A DNA stretch of 64,000 nucleotides from Eledone cirrhosa (Eukaryota), in contig OZ024743.1 of assembly GCA_964016885.1 (NCBI GenBank), positions 359,600,001 to 359,664,000 of the forward strand, written 5' to 3'. The translations under genes and the position numbers were made by a program. Shown piece by piece: positions 4,510 through 63,239 of the stretch. How positions within the stretch are numbered: the stretch's first letter is position 1; each line of letters begins with the position of its first letter. The notes beneath the pieces were generated by a model. That model searched no databases, had not been told where the DNA came from, and saw only the letters and a program-made list of their open reading frames with translations.

Positions 4510-4850
4510 AATAACTGTTTCTACTATTGGCACAAGGCCAGCAATAAACCAGTACATTACTGGTACTTTATTTTATCGACCCCGTAAGGATGAAAGGCAA
4601 AGTTAACCTAGGCGGGATTTGAACTCAGAATGGCAAGGACCGTAACTCTATGCGTCAAAGCATGGCGTCCGACCCTCTACCGATACTGCCAATTCATAAT
4701 TGTTTCTACTTTTGGCACAAGGCCAGCAATTACCCAGTACATTACTGGTACTTTATTTTATCGACCCCGTAAGGATGAAAGGCAAAGTTAACCTCGGCGG
4801 GATTTGAACTCAGAATGGCAAGGGCCGTAACTCTATGCGTCAAAGCATAA
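4510..4850 (-). mobile_element. Two tandem tRNA-derived SINE copies (short subfamily)
   Basis: Minus strand: A-box TTGGCAGTATCGG (first copy only), B-box GAGTTCAAATCCC, body CCTTTCATCCTTACGGGGTCGATAAAATAAAGTACCAG, tail TAGAAACA(A/G)TTAT. Confidence 0.85.
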
Positions 4851-15151: not shown

Positions 15152-15946
15152 ATATACAATATATTAACAAATGGAAACTATATTTATAAAACCATATTTA
15201 TTTCATTATACATATTTCAAGAGCCAGCAAGGAAAACCATGGTGCACTTTCATCAGATAAAATATTAATATAGGTTAGTTTTATAAATAAATATTGACAT
15301 ACCCTGAAAAAATGCAACCATTCTGGTTGGAATTTCCTGGATAGTGGAGTTATTAGATATATATAGGTCTCAACTTTAATAATCTAACATACACATTTAA
15401 ACATTTAAACTACGGAGTGAATTGATAAATTATCAATTAAGCATTTAATCAAATTTATTAATTAAACATTAGATAAAATTCTTCAACTTATCTTTATTAT
15501 TGTTTAACCATGCTACGGTATTCATCCACGCTATATTTATTTCTTCGCCTCTTCTCTCAAAATTACGCTATTCTCTCTCACTAAAATATACTCAGGTTTT
15601 TTTCTCTTTCTTTCTTTCGTTTTTTCTCTTTTTTCTCTTTTTTCTCTTTCTTTCTTCTTTTCCCTATTCCAACGGCTTAATTTAAATATACTGTTATTTA
15701 AACCTTTCCGACACTAATTTGCATAATAAACCAACAATAAATCTAATAACTCCACTATCCAGGAGATTCCAACCAGAATGGTTGCATTTTTTCAGGGTAT
15801 GTCAATATTTATTTATAAAACTAACCTATATTATATTTTATCTGATGAAAGTGCAACATAGTTTGCCTTGGTGGCCCTTGAAATATGTATAATGAAATAA
15901 ATATGGTTTTATAAATATAGTTTCCATTTGTTAATATATTGTATAT
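15152..15946. repeat. Inverted pair of PLE-like pseudo-LTR ends (~205-bp arms), each with a hammerhead-like motif (15206-15260 minus, 15838-15892 plus)
   Basis: Arms 15152-15359 and 15741-15946 are near-identical reverse complements; TTAT-CTGATGA-stem II-GAAAT-ATGT-ATAA. Confidence 0.8.
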
Positions 15947-22190: not shown

Positions 22191-23140
22191 AAGGATGAGA
22201 AATAAAGAAATAATATAGATTGAGGGGACGGGCGGGTTGGAATTGGAAAAAATGTCTTTAGATATAAATAACAGGTCCATTCTTGTTGCTATCTCTTGCA
22301 AAACTGTTGGTGCTGGCATTTTGTGTATGATTTATATTTTTCGAAAAGTGGATGATGGAGTGCGTCTACCTGAAATGGGAAAAAAGAACCGTTTTGTAAA
22401 AAGAGCTATGCTTGTGCACGTGCGTAAACATCTGTGTGCGCGCGTGTGTGTGTGTGTTATTATACACCCGTACGAATCTAAGAAGAAATGTGTGTGTATA
22501 TGTAAGTAAAAGAGCGCGTGTGCATGTAAGTACGAAGCTATGAGCAAAGTATGTTAATATAAGGGTGTGTATGTGTGTATACAGAGCAGTGAAAGGAAAA
22601 GTGGAGTGTGCATATTTTGTCGGTCTGTATTAGCTGTAAGAGAAGATGTTTATGATCATGAGAGAGCGATAGGAATCAAGGGGTGAATGTACAAGCGCGT
22701 GTGATAATGGACGGGGTATTAAAGAAATTGGGGAGGTGAGTTGAGTCCAAGAGGGGAATAAGACCCAAGGCACGAATCAGACTCTGTACAGTCCTGGTGC
22801 ACGAGGACTGTGATCCATGATGTAAAAGGACACCCAGGACTGAGACATGTATGGAAGAATGACCAGGAAACAGAAATGACGGGCGACAGGACTATCCAAA
22901 CCGAGTAGTATGTCCCTCAAATGCTCAGCAAAACGGTCCGCCGTACGGCGTCCCGTTTGTCCGATGTATAAAGACCCGCAAAGGGAACACCGGAGGGCAT
23001 AGACAACGTGGGTGGATGGATGTGCAGGTGAAAGAGTGGCGGGTATGGAAAGACCCGTTAGGGCCTGTGAGAGGTGGGGGGGGGAATGAAGGAACAAGTG
23101 TTGCAGCGAGAACGAGGACAAGGATGAGAGCCGGGTGGAG

Positions 23141-24178
23141 TCATGGGAGAAGACGGGAAGGAACTGCGTACCAGGAGGCCGCGTAGGTTGCGGACGCGCT
23201 TAAAAGCAGTAATGGGTGGGTTTGGAAAAAAGCGAGAAGTGACTGAGTCAGAAGAGAGGGTGCGGAAGGAACGGAGGGTATGTCACCGGAGTGGTAGTGC
23301 GATGGGGTGGTAGGTGAGAGGGAAAGGGACGCGGGTGTTGGCAAGGTGCGGGTGAGGTGAGAGTGGTGTGGTACGGACCGGTTACACGGGATTGGGTGAG
23401 AGCAGCTTGGATGAAGGTGGGCGGATACCCAGCTGGATGAAGCAGGAAGCCATGTGAAGGGAATGGGTTCCGAAATCGTCACCTGGCTACAGAGCCGACG
23501 CAGGCGAAGGAATTGGGAATAGGGTATGGAGTGTTTGGTGTAGGTTGGATGGGAGGAGGTGAAGTCGAGGTAAGAGTGGGAGTCTGTTGGTTTGTAGAAG
23601 ATGGAAGTAGAGAGGGTGTGGTGAGAGTGATTAATAGATAGAGATATATCTAGAAAAGCGACAGAAGAATCGGAGACGGCGGCGGTGAAAGTGAGAGCAG
23701 GATGGAAAGATAGGACAAAAGAAGGAAAACAATCGAGCTGTTCTCGTGATAGAAAGGTGGTGCCGATACAATAATCGATATGGCAACCGTATAGCTCAGG
23801 AGTAGGTCCAGCATACTGGGAGAAAATCTGGGCTTCGACGTAGCCAACAAACAAGTTGGCATATTTTGGACCCATTCTGGTTCCCATCGCTATCCCAGAG
23901 ACCTGTTGATAGAATTCACCCGAAAAGGAAAAGCCATTGAGGATCAGAACAAGCTCGGCCACACGGAGAAGAGTGGTAGTGCTGGGGTAAGGGGTAGGGC
24001 GTATGTCTAAAAAATGTTGGAGAGCGTGGAGGCCGTCATCATGAGGGATGACGGTATTGAGGGAGGTGATGTCCAGGGTAAAGAGAAGGCGAGAGGGACC
24101 AGAAGGGAAGGAGCAGGAGTTGAAGAGTCTAAGGGCATGATTTGTATCGTGGATGTGTGAGGGGAGATTGCCGACCAA
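23141..24178 (-). pseudogene. Penelope-like reverse transcriptase fragment
   Basis: RT motifs present; catalytic YIDD is mutated to HIDY. Confidence 0.85.
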
Positions 24179-25003
24179 CGGGGCAAGGATGGTGTCTAAA
24201 TATTAAGAAATGATCTCGGTGAGGCAGTTGTACTAAAAAACGATAGGACGGGCGGGATTATTTTGTTTGTGCATTTTGGGGAGGAAGTAGATGGTGGGTG
24301 TGCTAGAGGTGCGTTCAATAAGGTTGGTGGCTGTGGGGGTAGGAGAGAGGAGGAGATGAGCTCGTGGATGGTGGAGGACACGAGTTGTTGGTAACCAGGA
24401 GTGGGGTCGGAGGATAAAGAGCGGTAAAAATGGTATTGTGAAGCTGGTGGCGAGCCTCAGTCCTATAGAGATCAACGCTCCAAACCACCACTGGGCCACC
24501 TTTGGCAGCGGGTTTGATGACAATGTCATTGGGACGCTGAAGGTTGCGAAGAGCGGAGAGCTCAGTCCGCGTGATGTTAGCGCGACAAGAATGCTGGTGG
24601 AAACAGAACCGGTTCACAGTACGCCGGCAAGTATCGACAAAAGAGTCGAGGGTGCTGAACTGGCCAGAGCTCGGCGTCCAATGTGATTTCCGGCGACTGA
24701 GACGAGTGAAGTCATTCGTCTGTGTCGATGATGGCGTGTCGTGAAAAAAGCTTTCAGCTTTAATCGATGGAAGAACCCTTCAATATCGGCACGTGTGCGG
24801 AACTCGTTGCAGGTAAATGTGGTTGGTATAAAACGCAAACCACGAGGTTCAGAAAGTGGTAGGTCCTGGGGTATGGTGACTACAGTGCAGGGACGTGAGG
24901 GAGTAAAAGGGGCGGAGGTGGAGGGGATAAGGTGGTGGGGAGGGAGAAGGGGTTGAAGGTGACGGGATAGAGGGGTTAGGGTTGGAGGTGATAATATATA
25001 TAC

Positions 25004-27636: not shown

Positions 27637-30600
27637 GTGCCTTTTCTCTTTACCACCAACATTGCTGTGTTGAGGGTAGGTTGTCTAAATGCGCGTGTCC
27701 TGGGCTCACCTTGGAAGCAAGCAATGTTTCTAAATGACCTCAGGTCACGATGTATAAATGTGATGGTTATTTGCGAGGCCCAGATCAGCAGTGTGCGACA
27801 GCTGGCCCCCACCTTTGATGACTTTGAGATGCACGGATCTCTCTCTCAGCCCGGATGTGTGGGTGGGGTTGTCGTTCTGCTGCAAAAACATCTGGGTCTC
27901 GCTACACAGACGGTACACTTGAAGCCGGAGGGTCGACTAGTGTTTCTGGACCTTGGCAGTGGTGAAGGTGGAGCTTTTAGGCTGGTCGCCGTCTACTGCC
28001 CTTTTGGGTCAATGTGGCCGGACTTCTTCCATCGTCTGGAGACTTTTAGTGGGGGACTGGAATGGTATCCTAGATGCACGTTGGGACTATGTAGGGGCAT
28101 GTCCTGATAGAGGGGCTTGTAACAGCCTCAAGGGGTTAATCGGCCAATTCGACCTGGCCGATAGATATCGACTAGATTTTCCGACTGTGCCAACCTGGAC
28201 TTGGACAAACCATAGCGGTCAATCTAGATCGTACCTAGATAGGTTCTTAGTTAGAAATAAGGATAGGGACCTTTTAAGTTGTCCAAAAATGCTCATGGTT
28301 GGCTATTAAGACCACAAGTTAGTGACCTCCATGGTCAACCTTGATAGAACGCATAGACAGGGACCCGGTTACTGGAAGCTCAACTTGTCCTTACCGGCAA
28401 GTAAAGCTTACAGGGACCGGATTAGTACTTTAGTTAAGGAGCGGTTGACGGGCGCAATCGTCAACAGCAGGTGGTGGGGCTCTCTCAAAAGAGAGATTAG
28501 AGATTGGACCAAAGCTGTTCGCTCGGCCCGCGTGACAGAAGCCAAAAGTGGGATTAGATCCACTATCCGGTCTTTGCGAGACCAGGATGGAGGGGAGATC
28601 CTTGAACCTAAGCAGATGTGCGGGGCCTTTCAAAGGCACTTTGCCCGATTGTTTGGAAGGGGCGAGGGGCCGGTTGGGGATGTGGACTTCGGTCCATACC
28701 TCGACGGCCTGCCGCCTCTTTCGGACGAGGAGGCGAAGTCCTGCGAGGGGCCGATCTCAGCTGCTGAAATAGGGGACGTGCTGAGCAAATGGGACAGATG
28801 CAAATCCCCGGGCCTCGATGGTCTTCCATACGAACTGTATTTAAGTATGATGGACTTGTTCTTCAATCTCCTCGAGGCTATCTACTGCAACTGGCAACAG
28901 AACGGGAGAATTCCCTCTTCTGTGACCAAGGGCGTAGTCTCGCTAGTGAAGAAGGACGAGAAGAAGGGGGATGAAATAAGTAATTTCAGGCCCATAACTC
29001 TGCTAAATGCAGAGTTAAAGATTTTGGCCAAGGTGTTAGCAAAGAGGTTGGCGCTTGTCGTGGGCAACCTGGTGGGTGATGTGCAGACATGCGCCACCCG
29101 TCCAGGTCCATTCACGACAACCTCCACCTCATGCGATACATTATAGAGAGGGTTGGGAACGAACCCGGCTTTGGTGGGGCCCTGATCAACTTGGATCAAT
29201 CTAAGGCGTTCGATAGGGTCGACCACCGTTACCTGAATGCGGTGCTAGTGGCGGCAGGTTTCGGACCCGTTTTCAGGGGCTGAATCACTGCCATGCACAG
29301 TAACCGCACCTACTCTAGGGTCAATGTGAACGGCTAACTCTCGGAGCCGTTCGAAATCACGCGGTCCATCCGACAGGGATCCCCTCTCTCCTCCCTTCTG
29401 TATGCATTGACCCTAGAACCACTGATGCGGAAGTTGGAGTTGTTACAGGCCATCCCTTTGGAACCGGCATTGCGGAAAGCGATGTCGGCCTACGCAGATG
29501 ACGTGACAGTAATGGTGTCAACCGCCTCGGAAATCGGGGTGATCGGCACCTTACTGGAGGAATACGAAAAGTTTACAGGGCTAAGATGAACCGGGACAAG
29601 TCAGTCGGTTTGCAACCCGGCAAGTGGTGGGGAAAACCGATGGCCTCCAACAGCGTCGTCGGACGTTGGACGGAGGGCCCGGTGAAGCTGCTCAGGGTCT
29701 GGTTCGGGCCAGACCTCCAGGTGGAGAAGAACTGGAGTGAGGTATCGAACAGGGTGTTTGCGCTGACGCAGAGGTGGGCTGAGTGCAAACTATCCCTGAA
29801 AGGTCGGGCGGAGGTGGCGAACGCTTATATAGCGTCCGTCATCTATTACCGGCTGACCGTCGTGCCTTGCCCAAGGGAAACGCTCACCAAAATGGAGCGC
29901 GCACTCTTCCAATTCCTTTGGAAGAAGCGGGCTCCTTTGGTGAGGAGTTCCATCTACTGTCAACACCCTTCGAAAGGAGGGCTGGGGATGCCGTGGCTGC
30001 TGATGCGTAAACACGCATTAAGGCTACGGCCGCGCCAGGTATTCCTCACCGGTCAACCGGCGTGGGCCCCGTTTGTGAGGCGAGCCTTTCCGAGACTCGT
30101 CTCGCTCACCGAGCTGCAGTCCTGGGTCAAGCAAAGACCGAGAAAACTGGGCGCCTGGCACACCGAGTGTGCCCAGGTGCTCACGGCTCTCTGGCAGGCG
30201 GACCCGGCTATCGGTGGAGACTCCACCTCGTCATTCTATAGAGGGCTGGTGGTAAGTAGGGGCGACGACGCCCTTGGAGAAGCCCTAGGCATGGAAGAAG
30301 ACCAACTGGCCAGCCTATTCGGGAGGACATTTGCCCCGGGACATATGGACAACTTCCAGAGGTCCCTGGCCTGGCAGTGCTACCGAGGGGCGCTGTCCGT
30401 TCGAGAAAAGCTCTACAGACACGGGCGCCCGAGTAGGAACCCCTCGAAAAAGATCTGTCCCAGATGCGTGCGCGACGACGAAACCGTCTCGCACGCATTG
30501 GTACACTGCTCGGGCGTTGCCGATCTGTAGGGCTATGTCGAACGACTGCTGTCACGGGTGGGACCAATCCGGTTGACCACCGAGTCCATTGTAACGATCA

Positions 30601-36979: not shown

Positions 36980-39714
36980 ATGTATGTGCGTACCTATGTT
37001 TGTTTTCTTTTCTCTAGTGTTAATTGATTACTTTCTCTTTGATTTAAAAAAATGTTTTCAATCTCATATATTGTTTCATTTTTATACATATATCGAGAAT
37101 GACACTTCTTTTTACTATTACACTCCCTTCCCTCTTTATCTTCCGCATATAAGTGACCGAGGTGTGTGTGTGTTTATACGCGTGCTTTCATACTCGTATG
37201 TGTATTTAATACCTGTATCTGGATGCGTGTCAACTATATTATCATACAATTTCTTTTTCAACTCATATTATATACGTATTTGTGGTCACATATACACAAA
37301 TATACTTGCCCTCATATATGTACTTACGCACATATTTTCACAATACACATGCATTTGTACATACACGCATATGTACATTTGTGAGTGTATATACATACAT
37401 ATACACATACCCTAACTATATTTCCTTATATTTTTTTATATAATTTTTTCATATTTTTTTTATATATCTCCTGCATTACTTTTATTTATATATTTTTTGC
37501 ATTTCTTGAGGAGACTTTCCAAATATTTCACTATGTTATAAATTGCCTTGTCCGACGAACGAATGAGGACGTTTTTCGTATTCGTCTTATTCGGGAAACC
37601 TCTGGTAATGAGGTAATTATATTGTATTGTTTATTATACATTAAATTTTGCTCTGGTACTTACATAGAGCACTCTTCACACCTATGACTTTTTCAATTTC
37701 CAACGGAAACTTCAATACTTATACAGCTCCCAAGGGAATGATCGCAGCATATTCTACATTTTTATGAGATTGGCACCTTCCAGCCCTTTTAAAGTCGAGC
37801 ACTCTTCAGTCAATAGGATTTTAAACCAATACTGAACATCCTTTGGATTACTCTATCAAGAATATACCAACACCTTCTAACACTTCCTACACGAAAATGC
37901 TGATAGACAAAGTAGAGAAAGTTGTTAAAAGAATGAGATGGAAAGCTTTGATTCTCGATGGACACATTAACACGGACTCTACGGAATATTTTGATATCAA
38001 AACTCATAAATACCCGCAAAGAGTAAAAGATATGACCGCTTTTGAACTAGACTTAGTTAATCTAATCAACAATATCAATTTTCGTAAGTACTCTAACCCT
38101 TTTCAATCTAAACTATCTAATGATATTTCAATATTCAAATCTTCTAAAAATAAGTTCATTTTCTCCGACAAAACTAAAAACTTATACGAAGTTAATAATA
38201 ATTTACATGACCATCTCTTAATAGATAACATCACCTCTAAATACCAAATAGCTAATATAAACACGTATAATAATATAAATAAGGAAGCTAAAGAATTAGC
38301 TAGTTCTTTAAAAATAGATAATAGGACAGAAAAACTTGCTAAACGTAATGCATATATCACCCTTAAAGATTACAAACCTGACTTTATTAATCGTCCTAGT
38401 TGTAGATTAATCAACCCTGCTAAGACTGATATCGGTCTTGCCAGCAAAAAAATTAAAATAATATAAACACACAGATTAGAAGTAAGTCTGAATTACTCCA
38501 ATGGATAAATAGCTCTTCCGTAGTACATTGGTTTAATAATATTAAAGATAAAAATAGTTCTAGATTCACCCAATTTGACATTGTAGATTTCAACCCGTCT
38601 ATCTCTCAGACGCTTTTAGCGAAAGCCTTAAATTTCGCTAGAAAGTTTACCAATATTTCTGATATTGAAGAGAATGTCATCTTGCATGCTAGAAACACTC
38701 TACTCTTTACTGATAATGACACTTGGGTAAAAATATCTAACCCAGAGAACCCATTCGATGTCTCAAATGGGTTCTTTTGACAGTGCTGATGTTTGTGATT
38801 TAGTCGGCCTATTCCTCCTACACACACTTAAAGAAAAATTCCCTAACCATATTTTTGGGCTTTATCGCGACGATGGTCTAATACTTTCCCATACCACCAT
38901 AGGCCATAACTTAGATAGATTAAGGAAAGACTTAATAAAAACCTTCGCTAGTTTTAATCTTAAAATTACTATTGACACTAACCTTTCCAATGTTAATTTT
39001 CTAGATATAAACCTAGATTTGCCTACTGCTTCTTATAAACCATACCATAAATCTAATGAAAATTTAAAATATATAAATAAAGGCTCTTGCCATCCTCCTA
39101 TAGTTTTTAAAAACCTTATCCCTAATATTAGCCGTAGGATCTCCACCATCTCTTCCTCAGAAGCTATTTTCAATAAGGTATCCCCCTACTATAATAAAGC
39201 CCTTCAAAATAGCGGATTTAGCGAACCGATTAAGTACATACCCAACAATACTAACTCTTTTAAACATAATAATAGGAAAAGAAAAATAATCTGGTTCACA
39301 CACCCCTACTCTCTAGCAGTTAAAACTAATTTAGGCAAAAAATTCCTAGAGCTCTTAGATAAACATTTCCCTAGAACACATAGATACTATAAGATCTTCA
39401 ATAGAAACTGTGTCAAAATTAGCTACTCCTGCGGTCCCCCTATTAAATCTTATATCATCAATAAGAAATCACCCAGAGAACATCAAAATTGCTCCTTTAG
39501 AGTCAAAAGTGAATGTCATTACAAGGTAAATACAACACGAAAGCCATTGTATATGCGGCTAAAGTTACAACCATCAGCAACAACCAACCAGCCCCCAGCG
39601 AACGATATGTGGGTATGACACAAGACAAATTCAAAACGCGTTATTACTCACATGTCGCATCTTTCCGACATCCAGAAGAAAGATTCACAACAGCTCTGGC
39701 TAGCAGAATATTAT
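36980..39714 (+). mobile_element. Naiad-like Penelope element A (3'-truncated within GIY-YIG)
   Basis: YSIKNIPTP, KRMRWKA, SDKT, CRLINPAK, QFDIVDF, MGSFDSADVCDLVG, GLYRDDGL, KISYSC, YVGMTQDKFKTRY; upstream hammerhead. Confidence 0.9.
37541..37618 (+). ncRNA. Hammerhead motif in the Naiad A pseudo-LTR (CCGACGA core)
   Basis: 11-bp stem I AATTGCCTTGT/ATGAGGTAATT; long stem II CGAATGAGGACG/CGTCTTATTCG; GAAAC-CTCTG-GTA. Confidence 0.75.
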
Positions 39715-40193: not shown

Positions 40194-43100
40194 ATGTGTG
40201 TTTTTATTTTTCCTTTCCTTCTTCCTTGTCCAGCCTCAATTTCATATAGATTATATTTTTGTTTTTAAAATTCAACGCCAATAAATACACCAGGATTTTT
40301 TCATTCTGATGATTGAAAGCAAAATTTTTTTGCTTTTAAGAAACCACTGGTAAATGAAATAATTGCCTTATGTTGTTTATTACATAACAATTAAGCTCTG
40401 TTACCTACATAGAGCACTCTTTTTTCCTGGACTTTTCCGACGGAATTACTTCATTTATACAGCTCCAACCGGGATTGATTGAAGCATATTCTATATTACA
40501 TATACGATTGGCACTTTCCAGCCCGATTAGTTGAGCACTCTACAGTTTTCAGGAATTTAGCCAACTTACACCATGGACCTTTATGAATTGGATTATTCAA
40601 TCAAAAATATACCTACTCCTTCCAACACAACTTATACCAAAATGCTTATAGATAAAATCGTTAAAAGAATGAGATGGAAGGCAATGGTTTACGATGGACT
40701 ATTCAGTGCTGATACTAATGATTGTTTTGACATATAATCCCGTAAATATCCACCTAGAATTAAAGACATGGCCAACTTCGAATTAGACCTTGTTAATTTA
40801 ATTAGTGATATCAAATTTCGTAAGTACAATAATAATTTTCAAACTAAACTGTCTAACGATATTTCTAATTTTAAAAATGCTACAAACACCTTTGTTCTTT
40901 CCGATAAAACTAAAAATCTCTTTGAAGTTAATAGTATTTTGTATAACCAACTTTTAACTAATAGTATCACCAACAAATATCAATTAACTAATAATAATAC
41001 CTACAATACTATTAATAAAGAAGCTAAAGAACTAGCTAATTCTTTAAAAATAGACAACCGGATTGAAAGCCTAGCTAAGGGTAAAGCATATATTTCCCTT
41101 AAAGACCATAAATTAGACTTTACTAATCGACCTAGTTGTAGACTGATTAACCCGGCTAAATCCGAAGTTGGCCTTGCAAGTAAAAAAATCTTAAGAAAAA
41201 TAATTCTCCAAATTAGAACTAAGACTGACCTATCACAATGGTTAAATACTTCCTCTGTTATTTCTTGGTTTAATAATATACAAGGTAAAATTAAGTGTAG
41301 ATTTACCTAATTTGATATTGTTGATTTTTACCCCTCTATTACTGTTTCCTTATTAACTAATGCCTTAGAGTTTGCCAGACCCTTCATTAATATTTCTAAA
41401 TTAGAAGAAGACATTATATTTCATGCTAGAAAAACTTTACTCTTTACTAATGAAACTATTTGGGTTAAAAAGTCAAACCCTGAAAACTCTTTTGATGTTG
41501 CAATGTGTTCTTATGACAGTGCGGATGTGTGTGACTTAGTAGGATTATTCCTTCTCCACACCCTCAAAGAGAAATTTCCTTCCCATAATATCGGTTTCTC
41601 ATACCACCAACGGCCATAACCTTCATAAATTCCGTAAAGATTTAATCAATACTTTTGCTAATCTTAACATTAAAATTACTATAGATACGAACCTTACCAA
41701 TGCTAACTTTCTTGACATTAATCTTGATCTACTTACCGCCTCTTTTAAACCTTATAATAAACCTAATGAAAATCTTAGATATATACACAAAGAGTCTTGG
41801 CATCCCCCTATAGTTTTAAAAAATCTTATTCCCAACATTAGCCGTAGGATTTCTACCTTATCTTCGGCTCTAGACATTTTTATTAAAGTCGCCCCTTATT
41901 ATAATAAAGCCCCTAATAACAGCGGTTTTACAGAACAAATTTATTATTTACCTAAAATTAACCACAATAATAGGAAAAGGAAAATTATTTGGTTTACACC
42001 CACCCCTTCTCTCTAACTGTCAAAACTATGCAGGAAGGAAATTCCCTGACCTCTTAGATAAACATTTTCCTCCTAATCATAGATATTATAAGATATTTTA
42101 TAGAAATGTAGTTAAGATCAGTTACTCTTGTTGCCCATCAATGAAGTCTAAGATCACTAATTCAAATCGTACGAGAACAAATTAGGATGCAGTTGCAGGA
42201 AGCCGGATGAATGCCCATTACAGGGCAAATGTAACACCAAATCCGTTGTTTATGAGGCCAAAGTGACACCTTTAATCAACAACCAGCCAGCCAGGAGCAG
42301 GCGATATGTTGGCATGACCCAGGACAGGTTTAAAACCAGGTTTTATGCACATGTCGCTTCTTTTAAGCACTCCGATAAACGAACAGCAACGGCCCTCGCT
42401 AGTAAGGTGTGGGAATTCAGGATAAAAAGATCCCGCACTCTATCGATTGGTCTATTTTAGACCATTCGAGGGAGTACCAAAGGGGCACAAAGAATTGTTC
42501 TTTGTGTACCACGGAAAAATATAGGATTATGCTAAACTTGAAAGCCACTTCTGCTTGACTGAACTCAAAGACCGAGATCTTCAGATGTTGTCCTCATCTG
42601 AAATCACATCTGATCTGTAACTGGATTGACATTCCTACGAAAACTCAACCACCTTGAACTCCTTCTCTGCTCTTTAATTCCACTACGGTTTTTTTACTTG
42701 CTGAATCCACGTTCTGTACTCTCGTATTCTCTTTCTCCCTTATCTCCCCTTATATTTAAACCTTTTCCTATGTCATTTATTTCCCACCCCCCTACTTTCT
42801 GCCTTACCCTTCACATACCAAATTTTTTTTATTTTTAGATATTTATTTTTTTGTGTTGCGTATATATATGTATATGTGTATATATGTATATATATATATA
42901 TATGTATGTATATATATATATGTGTATGTATATGTGTGTGTATATGTATATGTGTATGTATATGTGTGTATGTATGTTTATATCTATCTGTATGTATATG
43001 TATATATATAATTGTATATTATATACTGCTGTATTTGTGCGTGTGTATATATATATATATATATATACGTGTGTGTATGTATGTGTGTATATATAGATTT

Positions 43101-47307: not shown

Positions 47308-47745
47308 TTAAGATTTAGTTGAAGGTTTGAAGTGTGAGAATTTCGCTTTCAGTTTATGCTGGCAAAAAATTGATCTTTCAATTTTGTTGTTTAGTAGTTG
47401 GTGGCTTGAGCTTAGGATATGGAAGAGCTCATTATTACACAACAGGCACGTTTTCATCCCACTCCGGTATGGAGGAGCATGTGAGAGTTTGGTCCATTTA
47501 AGGGTGCATTGTCGTCGGTTATTCCCTTTTAAGTGCCAAATTTTGTCGGCGAGAGTCGTTACGTAACGGTGTTGGTGGTGCTTTATTGCGTAACGATGCG
47601 TGTACCAACGAGTTTTGAAGGTGTTTGCAGTGCTGCCTATATAGTGCCAGGTTTGGTTGCCCGACTCAACCGAGCACCTGTACACTAGGTTTGAATGCAA
47701 ACATTCGTTATTCAATGGACAAGTGTCTGGAAGGTGGCAATTACA
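47308..47745 (-). pseudogene. Naiad-like GIY-YIG endonuclease
   Basis: CNCHLPDTCPLNNECL..LVYRC..YIGST..FKTRWYTH..CLLC..LLNN..CQH. Confidence 0.9.
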
Positions 47746-48208
47746 ATTTCTGTTATGGGCAGTGGTGGAGTTATAGGTGGGCTGGGATGTGTGTGTGAGT
47801 GTGTTTAGTGCATACTGTTTGTTAGTGGGTGGTAGGTGTATTATTGTGTTGAGTGATTGGGGTGTTGTTGTTACGGAGTTTTTTGGCGTTGCGCATCTTA
47901 ATGTTTGCGTCTAGGTTTGGTGCAGTGGAATAAGATAGTCTAATTGTTTTGGTATTAAGTATACTACTATATTTATGTGAATTTGGAAGGTGTTTTTTTA
48001 TAATTTTGTAGAATGTGGAAGGTAAGTTAGAGCTAATAGAAGAGTTAAAAATAGGATTATACCAAATGTAAGATCTACTCCGTGTTCTGTTTTGCTTTGA
48101 TGTTGCTGTTGTATTTGTGGTGTGGTTAGTATTAGGGGTTCTAGGTGCGTGTGTGCGGGTGTTTGTGGGGCGTTTGGCGTGTCTATGGTTATGTGTTTTA
48201 TGGTTGTG

Positions 48209-49567
48209 TCAGTCCATGTATTCTAGTTTGTCGGTGTGGCCAGGCCGTTCTAATGCAGTGTTGTAGTATTCAGCGTGTTGATCGAATATTTGTTGGTTAG
48301 ATGAGAGGCGGGATATTCTAAGTGATATACTATGTGGCACGGACCTTATAATAGATAGTGGGTGGTTAGAGCTAGTGTCGATGTAGGTGAGGTTCTCATT
48401 GTTTTTGTGAAAGGGTGTGATAATTTGGGTGCTGAGGTTGAAGGTGGCATCTAGGAAATTAACTACTTTGGTACTATATTCGTAGGTGATTTTAAGGCCA
48501 AGGCTATCTAGGGTTCTTCTAATGCTCTTACGGGTTCGCTCTATGTTTTGTTTATTCATGTTTTTAACTAATAGGAGAGCGTCATCTCTATATATTCCGC
48601 CTTGAAGGTAACTAAATTTATTATGTAAGGTGTGGACTATGTATATACCAACAATATCCGTAACTTGTGCTGAGTCATTAGCACCCATAGTTATGTCAAA
48701 GTTATCTATTCTATCCTTACGTACCCAAAAGTTATTTTCAAATTTAATTATCGTCGTTCTAGCTGCTAGGATAATGTTTATTTCGTCGTCGGTTAAGTCA
48801 GAGTTGGCTTTCGCAAATGCTAGTGCCTTGTTTAGAGTATCGGGTGATATGGAGGAGTAGTAGTCATTAATGTCGAATTGTATAAAGTTAGAGGTATTTT
48901 TGTTATCTATACTATTAAACCATTTAATTGTGTCGCTAGTATTGTCCCAAAGTTTAATAACTAGTTTATTCCTTAATTGTATTATTATTCTATCTAAAAT
49001 ATGCTTGCTAAATTTACCTATGTCTGACTTAGAAGGGCATATTAATCTAATTGTGGGTTTATCTAGGAAATCTAATTTGTGGTCCTTAAGATTAAAGGTG
49101 GGGGTGCAAGTTGTCATGAGCTCAGTTCTATCTTCAAGTTCTAGACTTTTGACAATATGGTGTGCTTGTTTGTTGATGTTAAGTAGTGCTTTGTTATAGG
49201 TTTTCTTATATTGTTTATGTAATTCCTTCCGTATAAGGTCGTGGTAGGTATTAATGTCCATTGTGTACACGTTAGATGTTTTATCCGCTTTGACAATAAT
49301 CCCGTTAGTGATGCGCAGCTTGATTAGAAAGGTATCCATGTTATTATGAAGCTTGTTGGTTTTGAACTTCTTATATTTAGTATTCATGACCATCTTAAGT
49401 AAGTCCTGTTCAAAGACGTCTAGTAGAGGGTTAGTGGGTGGATTTTTACAGGAGTTGAACCCATATGTATTCTTTCCAGAGTTCGCGGTATAATCCTTAC
49501 GCCCTTTGTCGAAGTGGAATGTTTTCCATCTGACGCGGCGTATGAAATCGTTGGTGCGCTGGATCAT
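48209..49567 (-). pseudogene. Naiad-like reverse transcriptase
   Basis: RRVRWK, KADKTSN, QFDINDYYSSI, MGANDSAQ, GIYRDD, VNFLD, SSNHP. Confidence 0.9.
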
Positions 49568-51494
49568 TCCAAGAGTGTAATCCTTCCTTTTGGGTAAAGG
49601 TATATTCTATAGGAACATACCGATGTAATGTTTTTCCATGTCCAAGGCGTAAGTTGAAGTGGTGGCTCAACCAGATAGGAGCATAGATTCAGTAATTAGG
49701 AGTATTCCAAAGCTTGGTAGAACAAGTTGTGAGGAAAGTTCTCAACATACGTTAAGGTGACTCAACAGGTTGGTAGGGATTCAGTAGTGGAAACACGAAC
49801 AAACGAGGAGTGTAATCAAAGAAGAGAGAAATAGGACGAAGGTAAACAGTTACAAAAGAATTTAATCCACGTATTAACAATTGTTTCATCAGGATTTCAG
49901 TCCATTATTGCTACACTATGTAATAATAGGCAATCAAGAAAGATACTGTAGCATCCGAATTTTCAAAATACAAAGTTGGAATGACCTTGGGAAATGAAAT
50001 AAGGAGTAGCAGTGTAAGATAGAGGAATAGAGAGAGAGAGGGGCAAAAGAGAGGGAGAGAGAGAGAGAAAAGGGATGGAGGTAGGAAGAGAAAGAGATAG
50101 GGTGGTGTGAGAGGATTTGTATAGAATATAGTGAAGTTACAAGAAGGGAGGGGGAGGAGGGTTGTGTGCTAAAAGTTGTGATGAGTAGAGGGAGAGAAAA
50201 GGAAGATATAATTTTAAGTGGCATTTGATAGTGTACAGGCGAAAGTCTTACCAGAGTATAGATGAAGGAAGAAAGTATTAAATTTCATATATAGTCTATT
50301 TTTAGGAGTGTGGAATTGTTATTTAGGGTAGAAAGAGAGGTAGTGTTAAGATTTAGTTGAAGGTTTGAAGTGTGAGAATTTCGCTTTCAGTTTATGCTGG
50401 CAAAAAATTGACCTTTCAATTTTGTTGTTTCGTAGTTGGTGGCTTGAGCTTAGGATATGGAAGAGCTCATTATTACACAACGGACACGTTTTCATCCCAC
50501 TCATGTGAGAGTTTGGTCCATTTACAATACACCCTTAAATGGACCAAACTCTCACATGCTCCTCCATACCGGAGTGGGATGAAAACGTACCCGTTGTGTA
50601 ATAATGAGCTCTTCCATATCCTAAGCTCAAGCCACCAACTACGAAACAACAAAATTGAAAGGTCAATTTTTTGCCAGCATAAACTGAAAACGAAATTCTC
50701 ACACTTCAAACCTTCAACTAAATCTTAACACTACCTCTCTTTCTATCCTAAATAACAATTCCACACTCCTAAAAATAGACTATATATGAAATTTAATACT
50801 TTCTTCCTTCATCTATACTCTGGTAAGACTTTCGCCTGTCCACTACCAAATGCCACTTAAAATTATATCTTCCTTCTCTCTCCCTCTACTCATCACAACT
50901 TTTAGCACACAACCCTCCTCCCCCTCCCTTCTTGCAACTTCACTATATTCTATACAAATCCTCTCACACCACCCTATCTCTTTCTCTTTCTCTCCCTACC
51001 TGCAACCCTTTTCTCTCTCTCTCTCCCTCTCTTTTACCCCTCTCTTTCTCTGTTCCTCTATCTTACACTACTACCCCTTATTTCATTTCCTAAGGTCATT
51101 CCAACTTTGTATTTTGAAAATTCGGATGCTACAGTATCTTTCTTGATTGCCTATTATTACATAGTGTAGCAATAATGGACTGAAATTCTGATGAAACAAT
51201 TGTTAATACATGGATTAAATTCTTTTGTAACTGTTTACCTTCGTCCTATTTCTCTCTTCTTTTATTGATATATATATAAATGGAATAGAATGAAACGAAA
51301 TTTCATTTCTCACTCATAGTACGGCACTTACTTAAATGCAAGTATGTATGTATACGTACATACACATATGTATACAGACGTACAGTAGTATGTATATATA
51401 TACATACATGCACACACATATATATATATATGCACGTATCGGTTTACCGAACATTTATTATAATGCTCGGTTTGTTTGTTTCTCTCTCTCTCTC

Positions 51495-58577: not shown

Positions 58578-59760
58578 TATATTATAGTATAATATCATAT
58601 TTAAAGTATTTACAAACATGAGAAAGAAGAGACTTAATATTTTCTTCATCTCGAAAGTAATCCCAATTAAATTATATTAAAAAAAATTTATATTAAAGAG
58701 ATTTTATATTAAAAAATAATCATTATATAATTTAGAAAGTAATTACAATTATAACTTTAAGAATTAAAAATTAAAAATTAGAATGCCCTTAAGTATCCAA
58801 AGGCCTTATAACTATACTTAAAAAGGATATTATTAAACTAGATATAAGCATTTGTCTAAATTTATACAAATAGTACATTGTTTAAAGTTTAAGACGATAT
58901 TAATCAGTTATATATAATATAATAAATAAATTACTGTTAAAATAAGGTCAATTATTATATTAAAAAAAAAACAATTATTCAACTAGGATCATCTAATACA
59001 TATATACTATAAATATACAAAACAAGCTTCATGAATCATAAAATCTAAAACACAGATTCAAAATAAATAAATGAATGGTTTGCGATCCTATAAGTGTCAA
59101 ATATATAAGCTATATAATTTAAAAATACAAGAACATTTTAAAGGATCTATATTATAGTATAATATCATATTAAAGTGTCTGCAAACATGAGAAAGAAAAG
59201 ACTTAAGATTTTCATCAACCCGAAGGTAATCCAAATTTAATTATATTAAAAAAAGTTAAATTAAAAACTAATCATTATATAATTTAGAAAATATTTAAAA
59301 ATTATAACACTAGAATGTCCTTAAGTATCCAAGGCACTTATAAATGTACCTGAATACATACAGAGTTTAAAGCTTAAGACGATATTAGTGAATTATATAC
59401 ATATAATTGTTTCTACTTTAGGCACAAGGCCAGCAATTACCCAGTGCATTACTGGTACTTTATTTTATCGACCCCATAAGGATGAAATACATATACATAT
59501 AATTATATACATATAATAAATATAATTATATACATATAATAAATAATAAATACAATTACTGTTAATAATGTTATAATTGAAGTTTTACATCAAGTTAAGG
59601 GGAAAAAGTTTGTCGACTAGGATCGTGTACGACACATATACAATAAATATATAAATCAAACATCTTGAATCTTAAAACAACATATTCAAAATAAATAAAT
59701 GAATGGTTTACGATTCCTTATAATTTTCAAACATATAAGCTATATATTTAAAACAAATAC
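58578..59760. repeat. Diverged ~570-bp tandem duplication in the presumed Naiad E 3' UTR (second copy holds a SINE fragment, 59405-59487)
   Basis: TATATTATAGTATAATATCATATT..CAAACATGAGAAAGAA at 58578 and 59148; TTCAAAATAAATAAATGAATGGTTT twice. Confidence 0.8.
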
Positions 59761-60353
59761 AATAAACCCCGAAAAAATTATTAAATGTATTTAAACAATC
59801 AAATGATATGCATACTCATCAAAAGATCATGTTAACAGCCTATATGTTTATATAGAACCCTTAATCCAACATTAATCATATCGTAAATAAATAAAAATTA
59901 TTAGAAGGTTTTATAATCTGTTATAGTGTCGTTTTACGCACTCAGTTGATAAGAAACGTCAAAAATTAAAACTTATTTATTCAATGTTTTTTCCTGACTT
60001 TTTGTGAGGCTTGGAATATAGAAGAAGCTTTATGCAGGCAATTTGAGAATAATTCACTTTTTTTGTTAATTAAATTATCATAATTAGTAATTATTAATAG
60101 GGTATCCATAGTACAAAGATTGCAGTTAGGTGATATTGAAGAATTCAAGTAGACTTGACCATTACACAGCTTTGACCAAGAAATCGAGTATTTTAAATTT
60201 TTGTCTTTTAATGACCATATAAGTTGTGATAAAGAGGTCGAAGATTTCCTATTAGGATTCGAAAAAGAATATTTGTGATTTGAAAATCTTAATTTAAATG
60301 TCGATGAAGTTGCACCAATTTAGTTGTATGTGATGTTATTTGCTTTTACGGTG

Positions 60354-60530
60354 GATTGGCAGTATCAGTAGAGAGTCGGACGCCATGCTTTCCAGCATAG
60401 TTACGTCCCTTTACGGTCTGAGTTCAAATCCCGCCGAGGTTAACTTTGCCTTTCAACCTTACGGGGTCGATAAAATAAAGTACCAGTAATGTACTGGGTA
60501 ATTGCTGGCCTTGTGCCAAAAGTAGAAACA
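60354..60530 (+). mobile_element. Young tRNA-SINE inserted into the Naiad E GIY-YIG
   Basis: 19-bp direct repeat GTTATTTGCTTTTACGGTG at 60335-60353 and 60531-60549. Confidence 0.92.
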
Positions 60531-61575
60531 GTTATTTGCTTTTACGGTGCAGATTGCTATCCAGACAATTATTTTGCAGAGGGCAATTTGATCTATTTCT
60601 ACAATTACATTTCGATTTATTGTTATTACTATAAATTGAACAATTGACATTAACATTGCTAGTATTTGAAGTGTTCTAATGATAGTGCTTAGATTAATGT
60701 TATTGTTATTCCTAGTATTAATATTGCTAGTGTTATTATATTCATTATCCCTAATTGTTTGTTAGTTTTGGTTATGTTTTAGAATTCTACTATTTATTTT
60801 TGCAATGTTCTGGGCCATATTCATAGTTGTAGAATAAGAAAGCTTAATTGTATGTCTGTTAAATATGGAACGGTATTTATGGGAAGCATTTATCTAAAGC
60901 TTTAAAGAATAGATTTGAGAGTGGTGTTTTGATTGCTACAGATGCGGGAGGATCAAACCATATAACTGATTTAGTTCTGACTTTTTCCCCCGATGTATTC
61001 ACGGTATTGGTGTTTGTATTATAATTTTTAGAATCTAGTTTATTTATGTTAGTCTTATTTTTACCCGGATTATAATTCAAATTATTATTATCTATATATT
61101 CAATATTATTTTTATAACCTGCCTTACGTAGCGCGTCATTATAATATCCTGCTTTTTCATCAAATATGGATTTATTAGCGGATATTCTAGTTATGGGTTT
61201 CTGTAAACTATTGACTATTGCATTTTTCACGGATTTAGGGTGATTAGAGTAATAGCTAACGTAATTTAAGTTTTCATTGGGCTTATGGAAAGGGTTATAA
61301 AATGCTGAGTTTAAGTTAAGGGTGACGTCAAGGAAATTAACTATTTTGGTGCTACTTTCAACTTCTAATTTACGGTCGTAATTTTTAAAGAATTCAATTA
61401 TAGTTTTCTTAACCCTATTTAGTTCTGTATTGCTATGCTTGACAATCGTAAATAAAATATATATATTGCTATTTCAGAGCTCCAATTCTAATTTTTAATT
61501 TCTGCCTGACCAACAACCGCTCTGCATAATCAGCTCCTGATTATTTACTAGATTTCTATAAGAATATAACACCAG

Positions 61576-61670
61576 TGATCTCGGTAGACAGGAGGGTTAG
61601 TTGGCCTAGATAAGCTTCAACCAAAGCGAAACAAGACTTGTCGGCTTATCTCCCCTGTTTGCTGAGATCA
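61576..61670 (+). ncRNA. Type I hammerhead, unit 1 (core mutated to UAGAUAA)
   Basis: GGCC-TAGATAA-GCTT(CAACCA)AAGC-GAAAC-AAGACTT-GTC-GGCT. Confidence 0.7.
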
Positions 61671-61893
61671 AAGTAAGTGAATTTGTCACTACTTTAAAAC
61701 AATAGTTTACGGTCTTCAAAATGCTTTTAATTAAGCATAAAGTGTATTGCAAAATACATTATATATACATCCATATATATATATTGCTATTTCAGAGCTC
61801 CAATTCTAATTTTTAATTTCTGCCTGACCAACAACCGCTCTGCATAATCAGCTCCTGATTATTTACTAGATTTCTATAAGAATATAACACCAG

Positions 61894-61988
61894 TGATCTC
61901 GGTAGACAGGAGGGGTAGTTGGCCTTGATAAGCTTCAACCAAAGCGAAACAAGACTTGTCGGCTTATCTCCCCTGTTTGCTGAGATCA
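61894..61988 (+). ncRNA. Type I hammerhead ribozyme, U3-A8 core variant, unit 2 (predicted cleavage after 61960)
   Basis: GGCC-TTGATAA-GCTT(CAACCA)AAGC-GAAAC-AAGACTT-GTC-GGCT; outer stem I TGATCTCGGTAGACAGG/CCTGTTTGCTGAGATCA. Confidence 0.85.
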
Positions 61989-62211
61989 AAGTAAGTGAAT
62001 TTGTCACTACTTTAAAACAATAGCTTACGGTCTTCAAAATGCTTTTAATTAAGCATAAAGTGTATTGCAAAATACATTATATATACATCCATATATATAT
62101 ATTGCTATTTCAGAGCTCCAATTCTAATTTTTAATTTCTGCCTGACCAACAACCGCTCTGCATAATCAGCTCCTGATTATTTACTAGATTTCTATAAGAA
62201 TATAACACCAG

Positions 62212-62306
62212 TGATCTCGGTAGACAGGAGGGGTAGTTGGCCTTGATAAGCTTCAACCAAAGCGAAACAAGACTTGTCGGCTTATCTCCCCTGTTTGCTG
62301 AGATCA
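62212..62306 (+). ncRNA. Type I hammerhead ribozyme, U3-A8 core variant, unit 3 (predicted cleavage after 62278)
   Basis: Identical to unit 2. Confidence 0.85.
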
Positions 62307-62529
62307 AAGTAAGTGAATTTGTCACTACTTTAAAACAATAGCTTACGGTCTTCAAAATGCTTTTAATTAAGCATAAAGTGTATTGCAAAATACATTATAT
62401 ATACATCCATATATATATATTGCTATTTCAGAGCTCCAATTCTAATTTTTAATTTCTGCCTGACCAACAACCGCTCTGCATAATCAGCTCCTGATTATTT
62501 ACTAGATTTCTATAAGAATATAACACCAG

Positions 62530-62624
62530 TGATCTCGGTAGACAGGAGGGGTAGTTGGCCTTGATAAGCTTCAACCAAAGCGAAACAAGACTTATCGGCT
62601 TATCTCCCCTGTTTGCTGAGATCA
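62530..62624 (+). ncRNA. Type I hammerhead, unit 4 (AUC triplet, C-A mismatch in stem III)
   Basis: GAAAC-AAGACTT-ATC-GGCT. Confidence 0.7.
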
Positions 62625-62796
62625 AAGTAAGTGAATTTGTCACTACTTTAAAACAATAGCTTATGGTCTTCAAAATGCTTTTAATTAAGCATAAAGTGTA
62701 TTGCAAAATACATTATATATACATCCATATATATATATATATATATAATATAATATATAAGATCAAAAGATGGTTAAATGAGTTCCATGTATTTTA

Positions 62797-62949: not shown

Positions 62950-63090
62950 TTGTGAGTTCAATTCTCTGACCGGGAGATGTGTTGTTTCCTTGAGCAAGAC
63001 AATATATCTCACGTTGCTCCAGGTTACTCAGCTGAAAATGAGTACCAGCAATACCTGGAGGTTTAACCCTGCGATGGACTGCCGGTCCAC
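62950..63090 (+). mobile_element. Fragment of a third SINE family
   Basis: B-box-like GAGTTCAATTC; TCCTTGAGCAAGACA; AAATGAGTACC; CCTGCGATGGACT. Confidence 0.55.
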
Positions 63091-63239
63091 CAAAAATTAG
63101 GTATTAGGATTGGTGCTCTGAAATAGCGATGTAAATGTGAATGTATGTATAGTATATTTGGCAATATACCGTATGTTTAATTAAAAACATATATATATAT
63201 ATATATATATATAAATAATGGCTGACTGAATACGCAATT

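Follow-up and report, generated by a model that had tools for sequence, protein, structure and literature searches.

A conserved compensatory U3-A8 core in the predicted hammerhead ribozymes of a Penelope-type non-LTR retrozyme family from Eledone cirrhosa

The sequence TTGATAA at positions 61925-61931 of the window, the 64,000-nucleotide stretch of Eledone cirrhosa DNA analysed here, is the U3...A8 core of a complete type I hammerhead, and it raises the question of whether a hammerhead with this core is still maintained as a ribozyme. In active hammerheads, positions 3 and 8 form a tertiary Watson-Crick pair (C3-G8). The accessible text of PMC3884650 cites this pair together with its mutational confirmation. 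Taken overall, the locus appears to carry a conserved compensatory U3-A8 core, a known variant, in a Penelope-mobilised non-LTR retrozyme. The features of the array are as follows.

61457..62738, forward strand: tandem array, 4.0 x 318 bp, of non-LTR retrozyme family A (TRF period 318, 99% matches)
61603..61646, forward strand: hammerhead copy 1, probably inactive, with U4A at 61608 (core TAGATAA at 61607)
61894..61988, forward strand: long rod that prolongs stem I; an internal loop in it faces loop 2 (folding z-score; covariation)
61921..61964, forward strand: hammerhead copy 2, type I, intact, with U3-A8 core (structural descriptor; Rfam HH9 alignment)
61921-24 (GGCC) and 61961-64 (3' GGCT), forward strand: stem I strands of copy 2
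61925..61931, forward strand: core U3 U4 G5 A6 U7 A8 A9, U3 being 61925 and A8 61930
61932..61945, forward strand: stem II (4 bp, G10.1-C11.1; GCTT/AAGC, 61932-35 with 61942-45) and 6-nt loop 2
61946-49, forward strand: GAAA of copy 2
61949..61959, forward strand: stem III strand A15.1-U16.1, a near-palindrome (10/11 bases self-complementary; ACAA/TTGT; U16.1 is 61959)
61960..61961, forward strand: predicted cleavage site after C17 (61960) of GUC, by hammerhead numbering applied to the window
61961..62278, forward strand: monomer or circle predicted to be released between the intact ribozymes of copies 2 and 3, 318 nt with 35% GC
62239..62282, forward strand: hammerhead copy 3, intact, same as copy 2 (core at 62243)
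62557..62600, forward strand: hammerhead copy 4, U3-A8 kept, stem III broken by G16.2A at 62594
62714..62759, no strand: (TA)n tract at the right end of the array, the usual target or end of the family

The units of the array differ from each other by 0-3 bases, and no ORF of at least 120 aa was found within 61457..62738. An earlier note on this DNA had read the core of the array hammerhead as UUGAUAA, and this was borne out, U3 and A8 being present in 4/4 copies. The core positions U4 G5 A6 A9, G12 A13 A14, A15.1-U16.1 and H17 are wholly intact in two of the four (cores at 61925 and 62243). Like type I hammerheads, the motif has a three-way junction with stems II and III closed and stem I open; in hammerhead numbering, cleavage falls after C17. 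A structural descriptor run over the whole window gave 6 matches, two of them the intact array copies, versus 0-3 per shuffle, and when the stems were required to have 4, 4 and 3 pairs or more, there were 2 window matches versus 1 across all 20 shuffles. Among 6 runs none was listed with RNA of the array, a result that is neutral as to expression. At a 5% threshold, the contigs of 4 of these 6 runs (three of which gave only 3, 11 and 1) had no difference listed at 61925 or 61930, from which we make no comparison between species. No tRNA was found in the window.

The ribozyme forms the tip of the rod, for which folding of 61890-61995 gave z = -6.06, and 13/18 rod pairs vary on both sides among homologues, as do 3/4 pairs of stem II. 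In the alignment to Rfam HH9, the internal loop and the 6-nt loop 2 are placed as in the model. According to folding, stem III at 61949..61959 would have 4 bp in the monomer and 10 bp in a double hammerhead. The whole 318-nt unit is also more stable than expected (z = -5.31, none of 100 shuffles as stable), and its predicted fold as a circle has an MFE of -79.7 kcal/mol with 57% of the bases paired.

The core and stem II of family A occur as 694 exact copies in the 3.0-Gb genome, whereas the reversed-pattern control gave 0. Loci of the family are spread over 7 contigs among 45 matches, and the copies at the best-scoring loci share 97-100% identity with the unit, except for one at 94%. The bare unit forms head-to-tail multimers at many of these loci. 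With its 318-bp tandem unit, 35% GC, a single type I hammerhead in each unit and no ORF of 120 aa, family A is by its sequence features a young non-LTR retrozyme family, of which the window array represents one locus.

The insertions of family A bear Penelope-type marks: a fixed tail, a 5' inversion and (TA)n targets. A common 27-nt tail ends 19/21 distinct loci other than that of the window (18 by script pattern, 1 by eye) and is nearly always followed by (TA)n, and an inverted, 5'-truncated piece is present at 17/21. The window array itself is without the family's tail. According to the accessible text of Craig et al. 2021 (PMC8557442), insertions of Penelope-like elements (PLEs) are marked by a tail on one side, an inverted copy truncated at its 5' end and targets in microsatellites. 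The tail of the Neptune-clade PLEs described there measures 30-40 bp compared with 27 nt in the retrozyme, which, unlike them, encodes no protein. This insertion anatomy supports Penelope-type mobilisation of retrozymes.

Older relatives of the unit were found by patterns and by chance in fetched loci, and they are collinear with it over the whole unit. The 177 distinct ribozyme-domain segments were sorted into subfamilies, with 5 left unassigned. Seven subfamilies carry U3-A8; identity to family A is 79-85% in the three older groups for which it was measured. C3-G8 is found in the sister family E (34/34 copies, 68-70% identical to A) and in family B (one segment, 57% identical to A); E copies were fetched by a C3-G8 query and uncompensated copies on purpose, so these counts do not describe a random sample. 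The window holds one trace of family E.

63077..63193, reverse strand: family E remnant without ribozyme (94% identical to loci L167 and L039)

Among 10 subfamily representatives, pair 3-8 is UA in 7, CG in 3 and unpaired in none. When positions 3 and 8 were left free in the pattern, the basal subfamily gave 91/96 copies with U3-A8, 3 with C3-A8, 2 with U3-G8 and 0 with C3-G8; for two other subfamilies the corresponding numbers, among the first 100 of 811 matches, were 96, 2, 2 and 0. We looked for a C3-G8 subfamily inside family A and found 0 copies with C3-G8, and in the single match with C3 that C is the base of an inversion junction. Two basal copies at one locus were considered as a C3-A8 intermediate lineage, and this was rejected with 91/96 of the subfamily U3-A8 and 0 C3-G8.

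In a tree built without positions 3 and 8, one change sets C3-G8 apart (support 99/98), and the uncompensated copies are scattered tips; the tree has 66 thinned rows and a midpoint root, with B on a long branch and the bootstrap not fully settled. The covariation is thus real, but within the clade it stems from a single evolutionary event, because one change on the tree separates C3-G8 from the rest. The proposal that C3U and G8A are compensatory gains support from U-A or C-G pairs in 10/10 representatives and from the collinear C3-G8 sisters, and the covariation predicted among homologues was found, no family having an uncompensated majority. Because the U3-A8 clade and its collinear C3-G8 sister family share one genome, they offer a natural, phylogenetically framed comparison of the 3-8 pair.

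Some further features of the sister families may be mentioned. The C3-G8 families (loci L144, L167 and L010) are without the usual G10.1-C11.1 pair and mostly have U-U there, whereas the U3-A8 clade has the pair; each of the two lineages deviates from the consensus at one place. At L010:1972-3131, family B is a 310-bp C3-G8 tandem family, collinear with A and inserted right beside a family A insertion.

The earlier note had suggested selection for catalysis; the fold as a whole appears to be under selection, with the core invariant over seven U3-A8 subfamilies and the stems changing in compensated pairs. None of the 12 core positions varies among the majority sequences of the seven, compared with 62/199 other columns (Fisher p = 0.013, a rough value as columns are not independent). 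In the 10 representatives, changes on both sides occurred at 21/32 pairs versus at most 4 with partners slid, and 94.9% of cells pair versus 41-51% with partners slid, the structure having been drawn from the window's copy, which favours that structure. Position 7, which is free in hammerheads, is C in 22/96 basal copies.

Genome-wide counts were made with a pattern that requires G10.1-C11.1 and with the reversed pattern as control; the copies are not independent. There were 13,875 C3-G8 motifs (control 228), 461 U3-G8 motifs (control 381) and 556 C3-A8 motifs (control 264). U3-A8 was counted in three non-overlapping parts, 694 (control 0), 2,624 (control 634) and most of 811 (control 0), which gives about 3,500 above background. 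Uncompensated cores are thus rare genome-wide. Four more families, without BLAST similarity to A, carry U3-A8 (loci L073, L083, L085, L078, L135, L086 and L039:1156): it is found in 7/7, 4/4 and 8/9 copies for three of them and in 2 copies of the fourth, most of these loci having come from the U3-A8 pattern search. In the copies examined, a lone change at 3 or 8 is the majority in none of the four.

Two other groups of loci came to light in these counts. A 466-bp tandem retrozyme-like family with canonical C3-G8 (L042-L061, G000:C1:5.738-5.752 Mb) has about 30 units in a single array and is the commonest type among the first 100 of the 13,875 canonical matches. Uncompensated C3-A8 tandem clusters at G000:C1:375635330-375643742 and C1:348863669-348949709 were apparently amplified locally after the change.

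We consider it probable that the type I hammerhead in the window is functional and belongs to a non-autonomous non-LTR retrozyme, the circle of which is copied by a PLE-like enzyme and in which a change from C3-G8 to U3-A8 has been kept. Read-through transcription of the array would give a multimer, in which neighbouring hammerheads would cleave after C17; folding suggests that this is easiest when two of them share the palindromic stem III in a double hammerhead. The released 318-nt monomer would be ligated to a circle, as in the retrozymes of coral, mussel and axolotl. A Penelope-like RT/GIY-YIG enzyme would then copy the circle into (TA)n tracts, an enzyme suggested by the observed insertion anatomy, and this copying would leave the fixed 27-nt tail and the inverted 5' piece. 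In the ancestor of the clade, the tertiary pair C3-G8 would have become U3-A8 by two transitions, and the U-A pair would still place residue 8 for catalysis. U3-A8 has been retained through at least seven later amplification waves, as its conservation shows.

Nearest-neighbour folding speaks against this explanation, as the active monomer lies 6.5 kcal/mol above an alternative fold. The active monomer is 2.6-7.0 kcal/mol above the MFE in 10/10 representatives, and the RNAalifold consensus is the alternative fold and not the hammerhead. Other points against it are the single event behind the swap, the two damaged copies among the four of the array, the missing tail at this locus and the absence of sequence shared with a candidate autonomous partner at 29/29 other loci of the adjacent PLE family. 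In 9/10 representatives, stem III reads as a palindrome, perfect or nearly so. A palindromic stem III is known to allow activation as a dimer, according to the accessible texts of PMC4209133 and PMC7761336.

The folds suggest an addition to the functional-retrozyme explanation rather than a replacement of it, which we hold as possible, with clear reservations: position 3 may do double duty, in that the strand from 2.1 to G5 would pair with 15.2-15.5, in the 5' strand of stem III, and lock the monomer or circle inactive, and cleavage would take place mainly in tandem transcripts. U3-A8 and the later stem changes would then reflect this switch, or selection favouring slower cleavage. The lock helix, which RNAalifold picks too, is predicted as the ground state for 9/10 representatives (P 0.64-0.99), and it is perfect both in family A (CUUG/CAAG) and in family E (UCUG/CAGA). 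In the tandem of units 2-3, folding as a double hammerhead costs 4.0 kcal/mol relative to the MFE, and folding as two single hammerheads 13.8. Of its cells, 95% are paired versus 25-60% for slid partners, but 5/500 shuffles reach this percentage, which is within reach of relatedness alone, and 94/500 match its count of changes on both sides. The helix has only 4 pairs, one of them invariant and one changing on one side only; pair 3-15.4 is broken in 2/10 representatives and family B is without the helix. Moreover, it was discovered on the same alignment on which it was tested, and energy models omit tertiary contacts. The lock helix may be a new element beside the known dimeric activation, and it can also be read against activity; if real, it would explain how the circle avoids cutting itself.

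A stronger form, which we regard as unlikely, would make the helix a clade-wide conserved off-switch, in which the core strand with position 3 imitates stem III's 3' strand, so that cleavage is confined to tandem transcripts. Every lineage would carry one attenuating change, U3-A8 or, in the C3-G8 sisters, the U10.1-U11.1 mismatch, under selection for tuned cleavage. If this is true, a genome with U3-A8 in five unrelated families (about one fifth of the motifs counted) would be a natural series that shows selection for tuned and not maximal cleavage.

Penelope-type marks could also arise if the 318-bp unit were the pseudo-LTR of an unseen autonomous PLE and the arrays were short 5'-truncated insertions for which a circular RNA is not needed. 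The tail, the inversion and the TA targeting are all PLE marks, and the window array abuts a PLE ORF.

59981..61460, reverse strand: degenerate 3' half of a Penelope-like ORF, which from its motifs we take to be Neptune-type, head-to-head with the array via a 4-base ATAT microhomology

The Neptune-type label also draws on the cysteine linker motif described in the accessible text of PMC8557442. A 2026 preprint, in the part available, derives retrozymes from Penelope pseudo-LTRs. Nevertheless, we judge the pseudo-LTR origin improbable. It is opposed by the many loci at which the bare unit is repeated head to tail, and the adjacent PLE family is without homology to the unit within about 1.5 kb at 29/29 other loci. 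By tblastn, PLE pieces were present at only 2/21 other family A loci (L003 and L008). The adjacent ORF, left of the array, is cut inside its RT motif and joined there to the array, and its relatives continue upstream normally. A Pfam search with 4 PLE fragments gave no relevant family. The adjacent PLE as a proven partner of the retrozyme was thus unsupported, as 0/29 other loci of its family share sequence with the retrozyme. The join of array and PLE may have come from a template switch or from an insertion at a later time, accompanied by a deletion. Finally, it is highly implausible that the ribozyme is dead or dispensable, a master copy having by chance fixed two AT-ward transitions whose pairing is a coincidence. 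In favour of this, the genome is AT-rich and the two changes are both transitions towards AT, they form a single event on the tree, and uncompensated copies exist (5/96 basal and 4 among the first 100 of 811); against it, the rest of the core is fixed over 15-21% divergence, stems I-III have changed in compensated pairs, four unrelated families also have U3-A8 and none a lone-change majority, and the single changes sit at scattered tree tips.

The U3-A8 core is not new, because PMC3088659 and PMC4209133 reported it earlier, the former in natural hammerheads in 2011 and the latter, as UUGAUAA, in Schistosoma Penelope elements in 2014. According to the accessible text of Perreault et al. 2011 (PMC3088659), several natural hammerheads have U3 and A8 as a covarying replacement of C3 and G8, and U3-A8 ribozymes have already been shown to be active in vitro; its supplements (11 text files) contain no match to the core string of the window or to octopus. 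The core variant described in the available text of PMC7151607 is a different one. In the part of Cervera and de la Pena 2014 (PMC4209133) available, the Cercyon PLEs of Schistosoma mansoni have U3-A8, with about 1,300 hits by a dedicated descriptor, and the heptamer UUGAUAA is listed for S. mansoni (3). The covariation is the same as in the window. However, the Schistosoma hammerheads described there are minimal motifs, mostly single and almost without stem III, whereas in that of the window stems II and III are complete, the rod is long and the motif lies in a tandem non-coding unit.

Like the metazoan non-LTR retrozymes of Cervera and de la Pena 2020 (PMC7229834), which in its main text have tandem units of 170-400 bp, GC below 45% and one type I hammerhead per unit, the window element agrees in unit size, GC, the single hammerhead, a self-paired monomer and co-occurrence with PLEs. 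It differs from the retrozymes described there in its U3-A8 core and in being known here from DNA, with the circle predicted. No octopus or cephalopod element is named in that main text. We found no published report of this clade or of cephalopod retrozymes; most subscription papers lie outside the search, as do the supplement of PMC7229834 and file 1 of PMC4209133, which may list it. The apparently new elements are an unreported clade with a C3-G8 sister group and the U3-A8 core in four more unrelated families, to which a predicted core-locking helix that would favour cleavage in the dimer may be added.

The earlier note had further held that the U3-A8 core hides the family from CUGANGA searches. 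This is true of strict CUGANGA patterns, but a U3-A8 descriptor is in print in the accessible text of PMC4209133, and canonical hammerheads miss the Rfam cut-offs as well. A search of the window at Rfam gathering scores gave 0 matches. The best Rfam match is Hammerhead_HH9 (RF02275), which aligns to copy 2 over the whole model with 27 bits (E 3.7e-4) compared with a gathering score of 52, so that copy 2 is not a member. The stem and loop layout is alike over the whole model, but the core of HH9 is C3-G8 and that of the window hammerhead U3-A8. Canonical C3-G8 hammerheads of the same genome were also below the gathering scores (36.5 bits against 52, and 30.7 against 34), and U3-A8 as the cause of the Rfam miss was rejected because the canonical ones miss too. 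Surveys of retrozymes with CUGANGA only can undercount, as shown by about 3,500 U3-A8 vs about 13,650 C3-G8 motifs with the same pattern.

Other elements of the window were as follows. Further RT/GIY-YIG fragments, presumably Penelope-like from their motifs, lie at 37825-39618 (forward), 40738-42016 (forward) and 47308-49606 (reverse); they resemble the fragment beside the array, and one has a 465-aa open frame. Two other fragments, which by their motifs we take to belong to RT-bearing retroelements, were seen as ORFs only (27637-30530, forward; 22777-24779, reverse). The Penelope-like ORF beside the array contains, at 60335-60549, an inserted SINE-like repeat (about 180 bp) that has a target-site duplication of 19 bp, and related sequence is found at 4511-4848 and 59380-59490. 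Four canonical CUGAUGA type I hammerhead-like motifs are located at 15842 (forward), about 15256 (reverse), 40306 (forward) and 57284 (forward), and three of them have a short palindromic stem III. The motifs at 15842 and about 15256 form an inverted pair resembling minimal hammerheads of the Penelope type.
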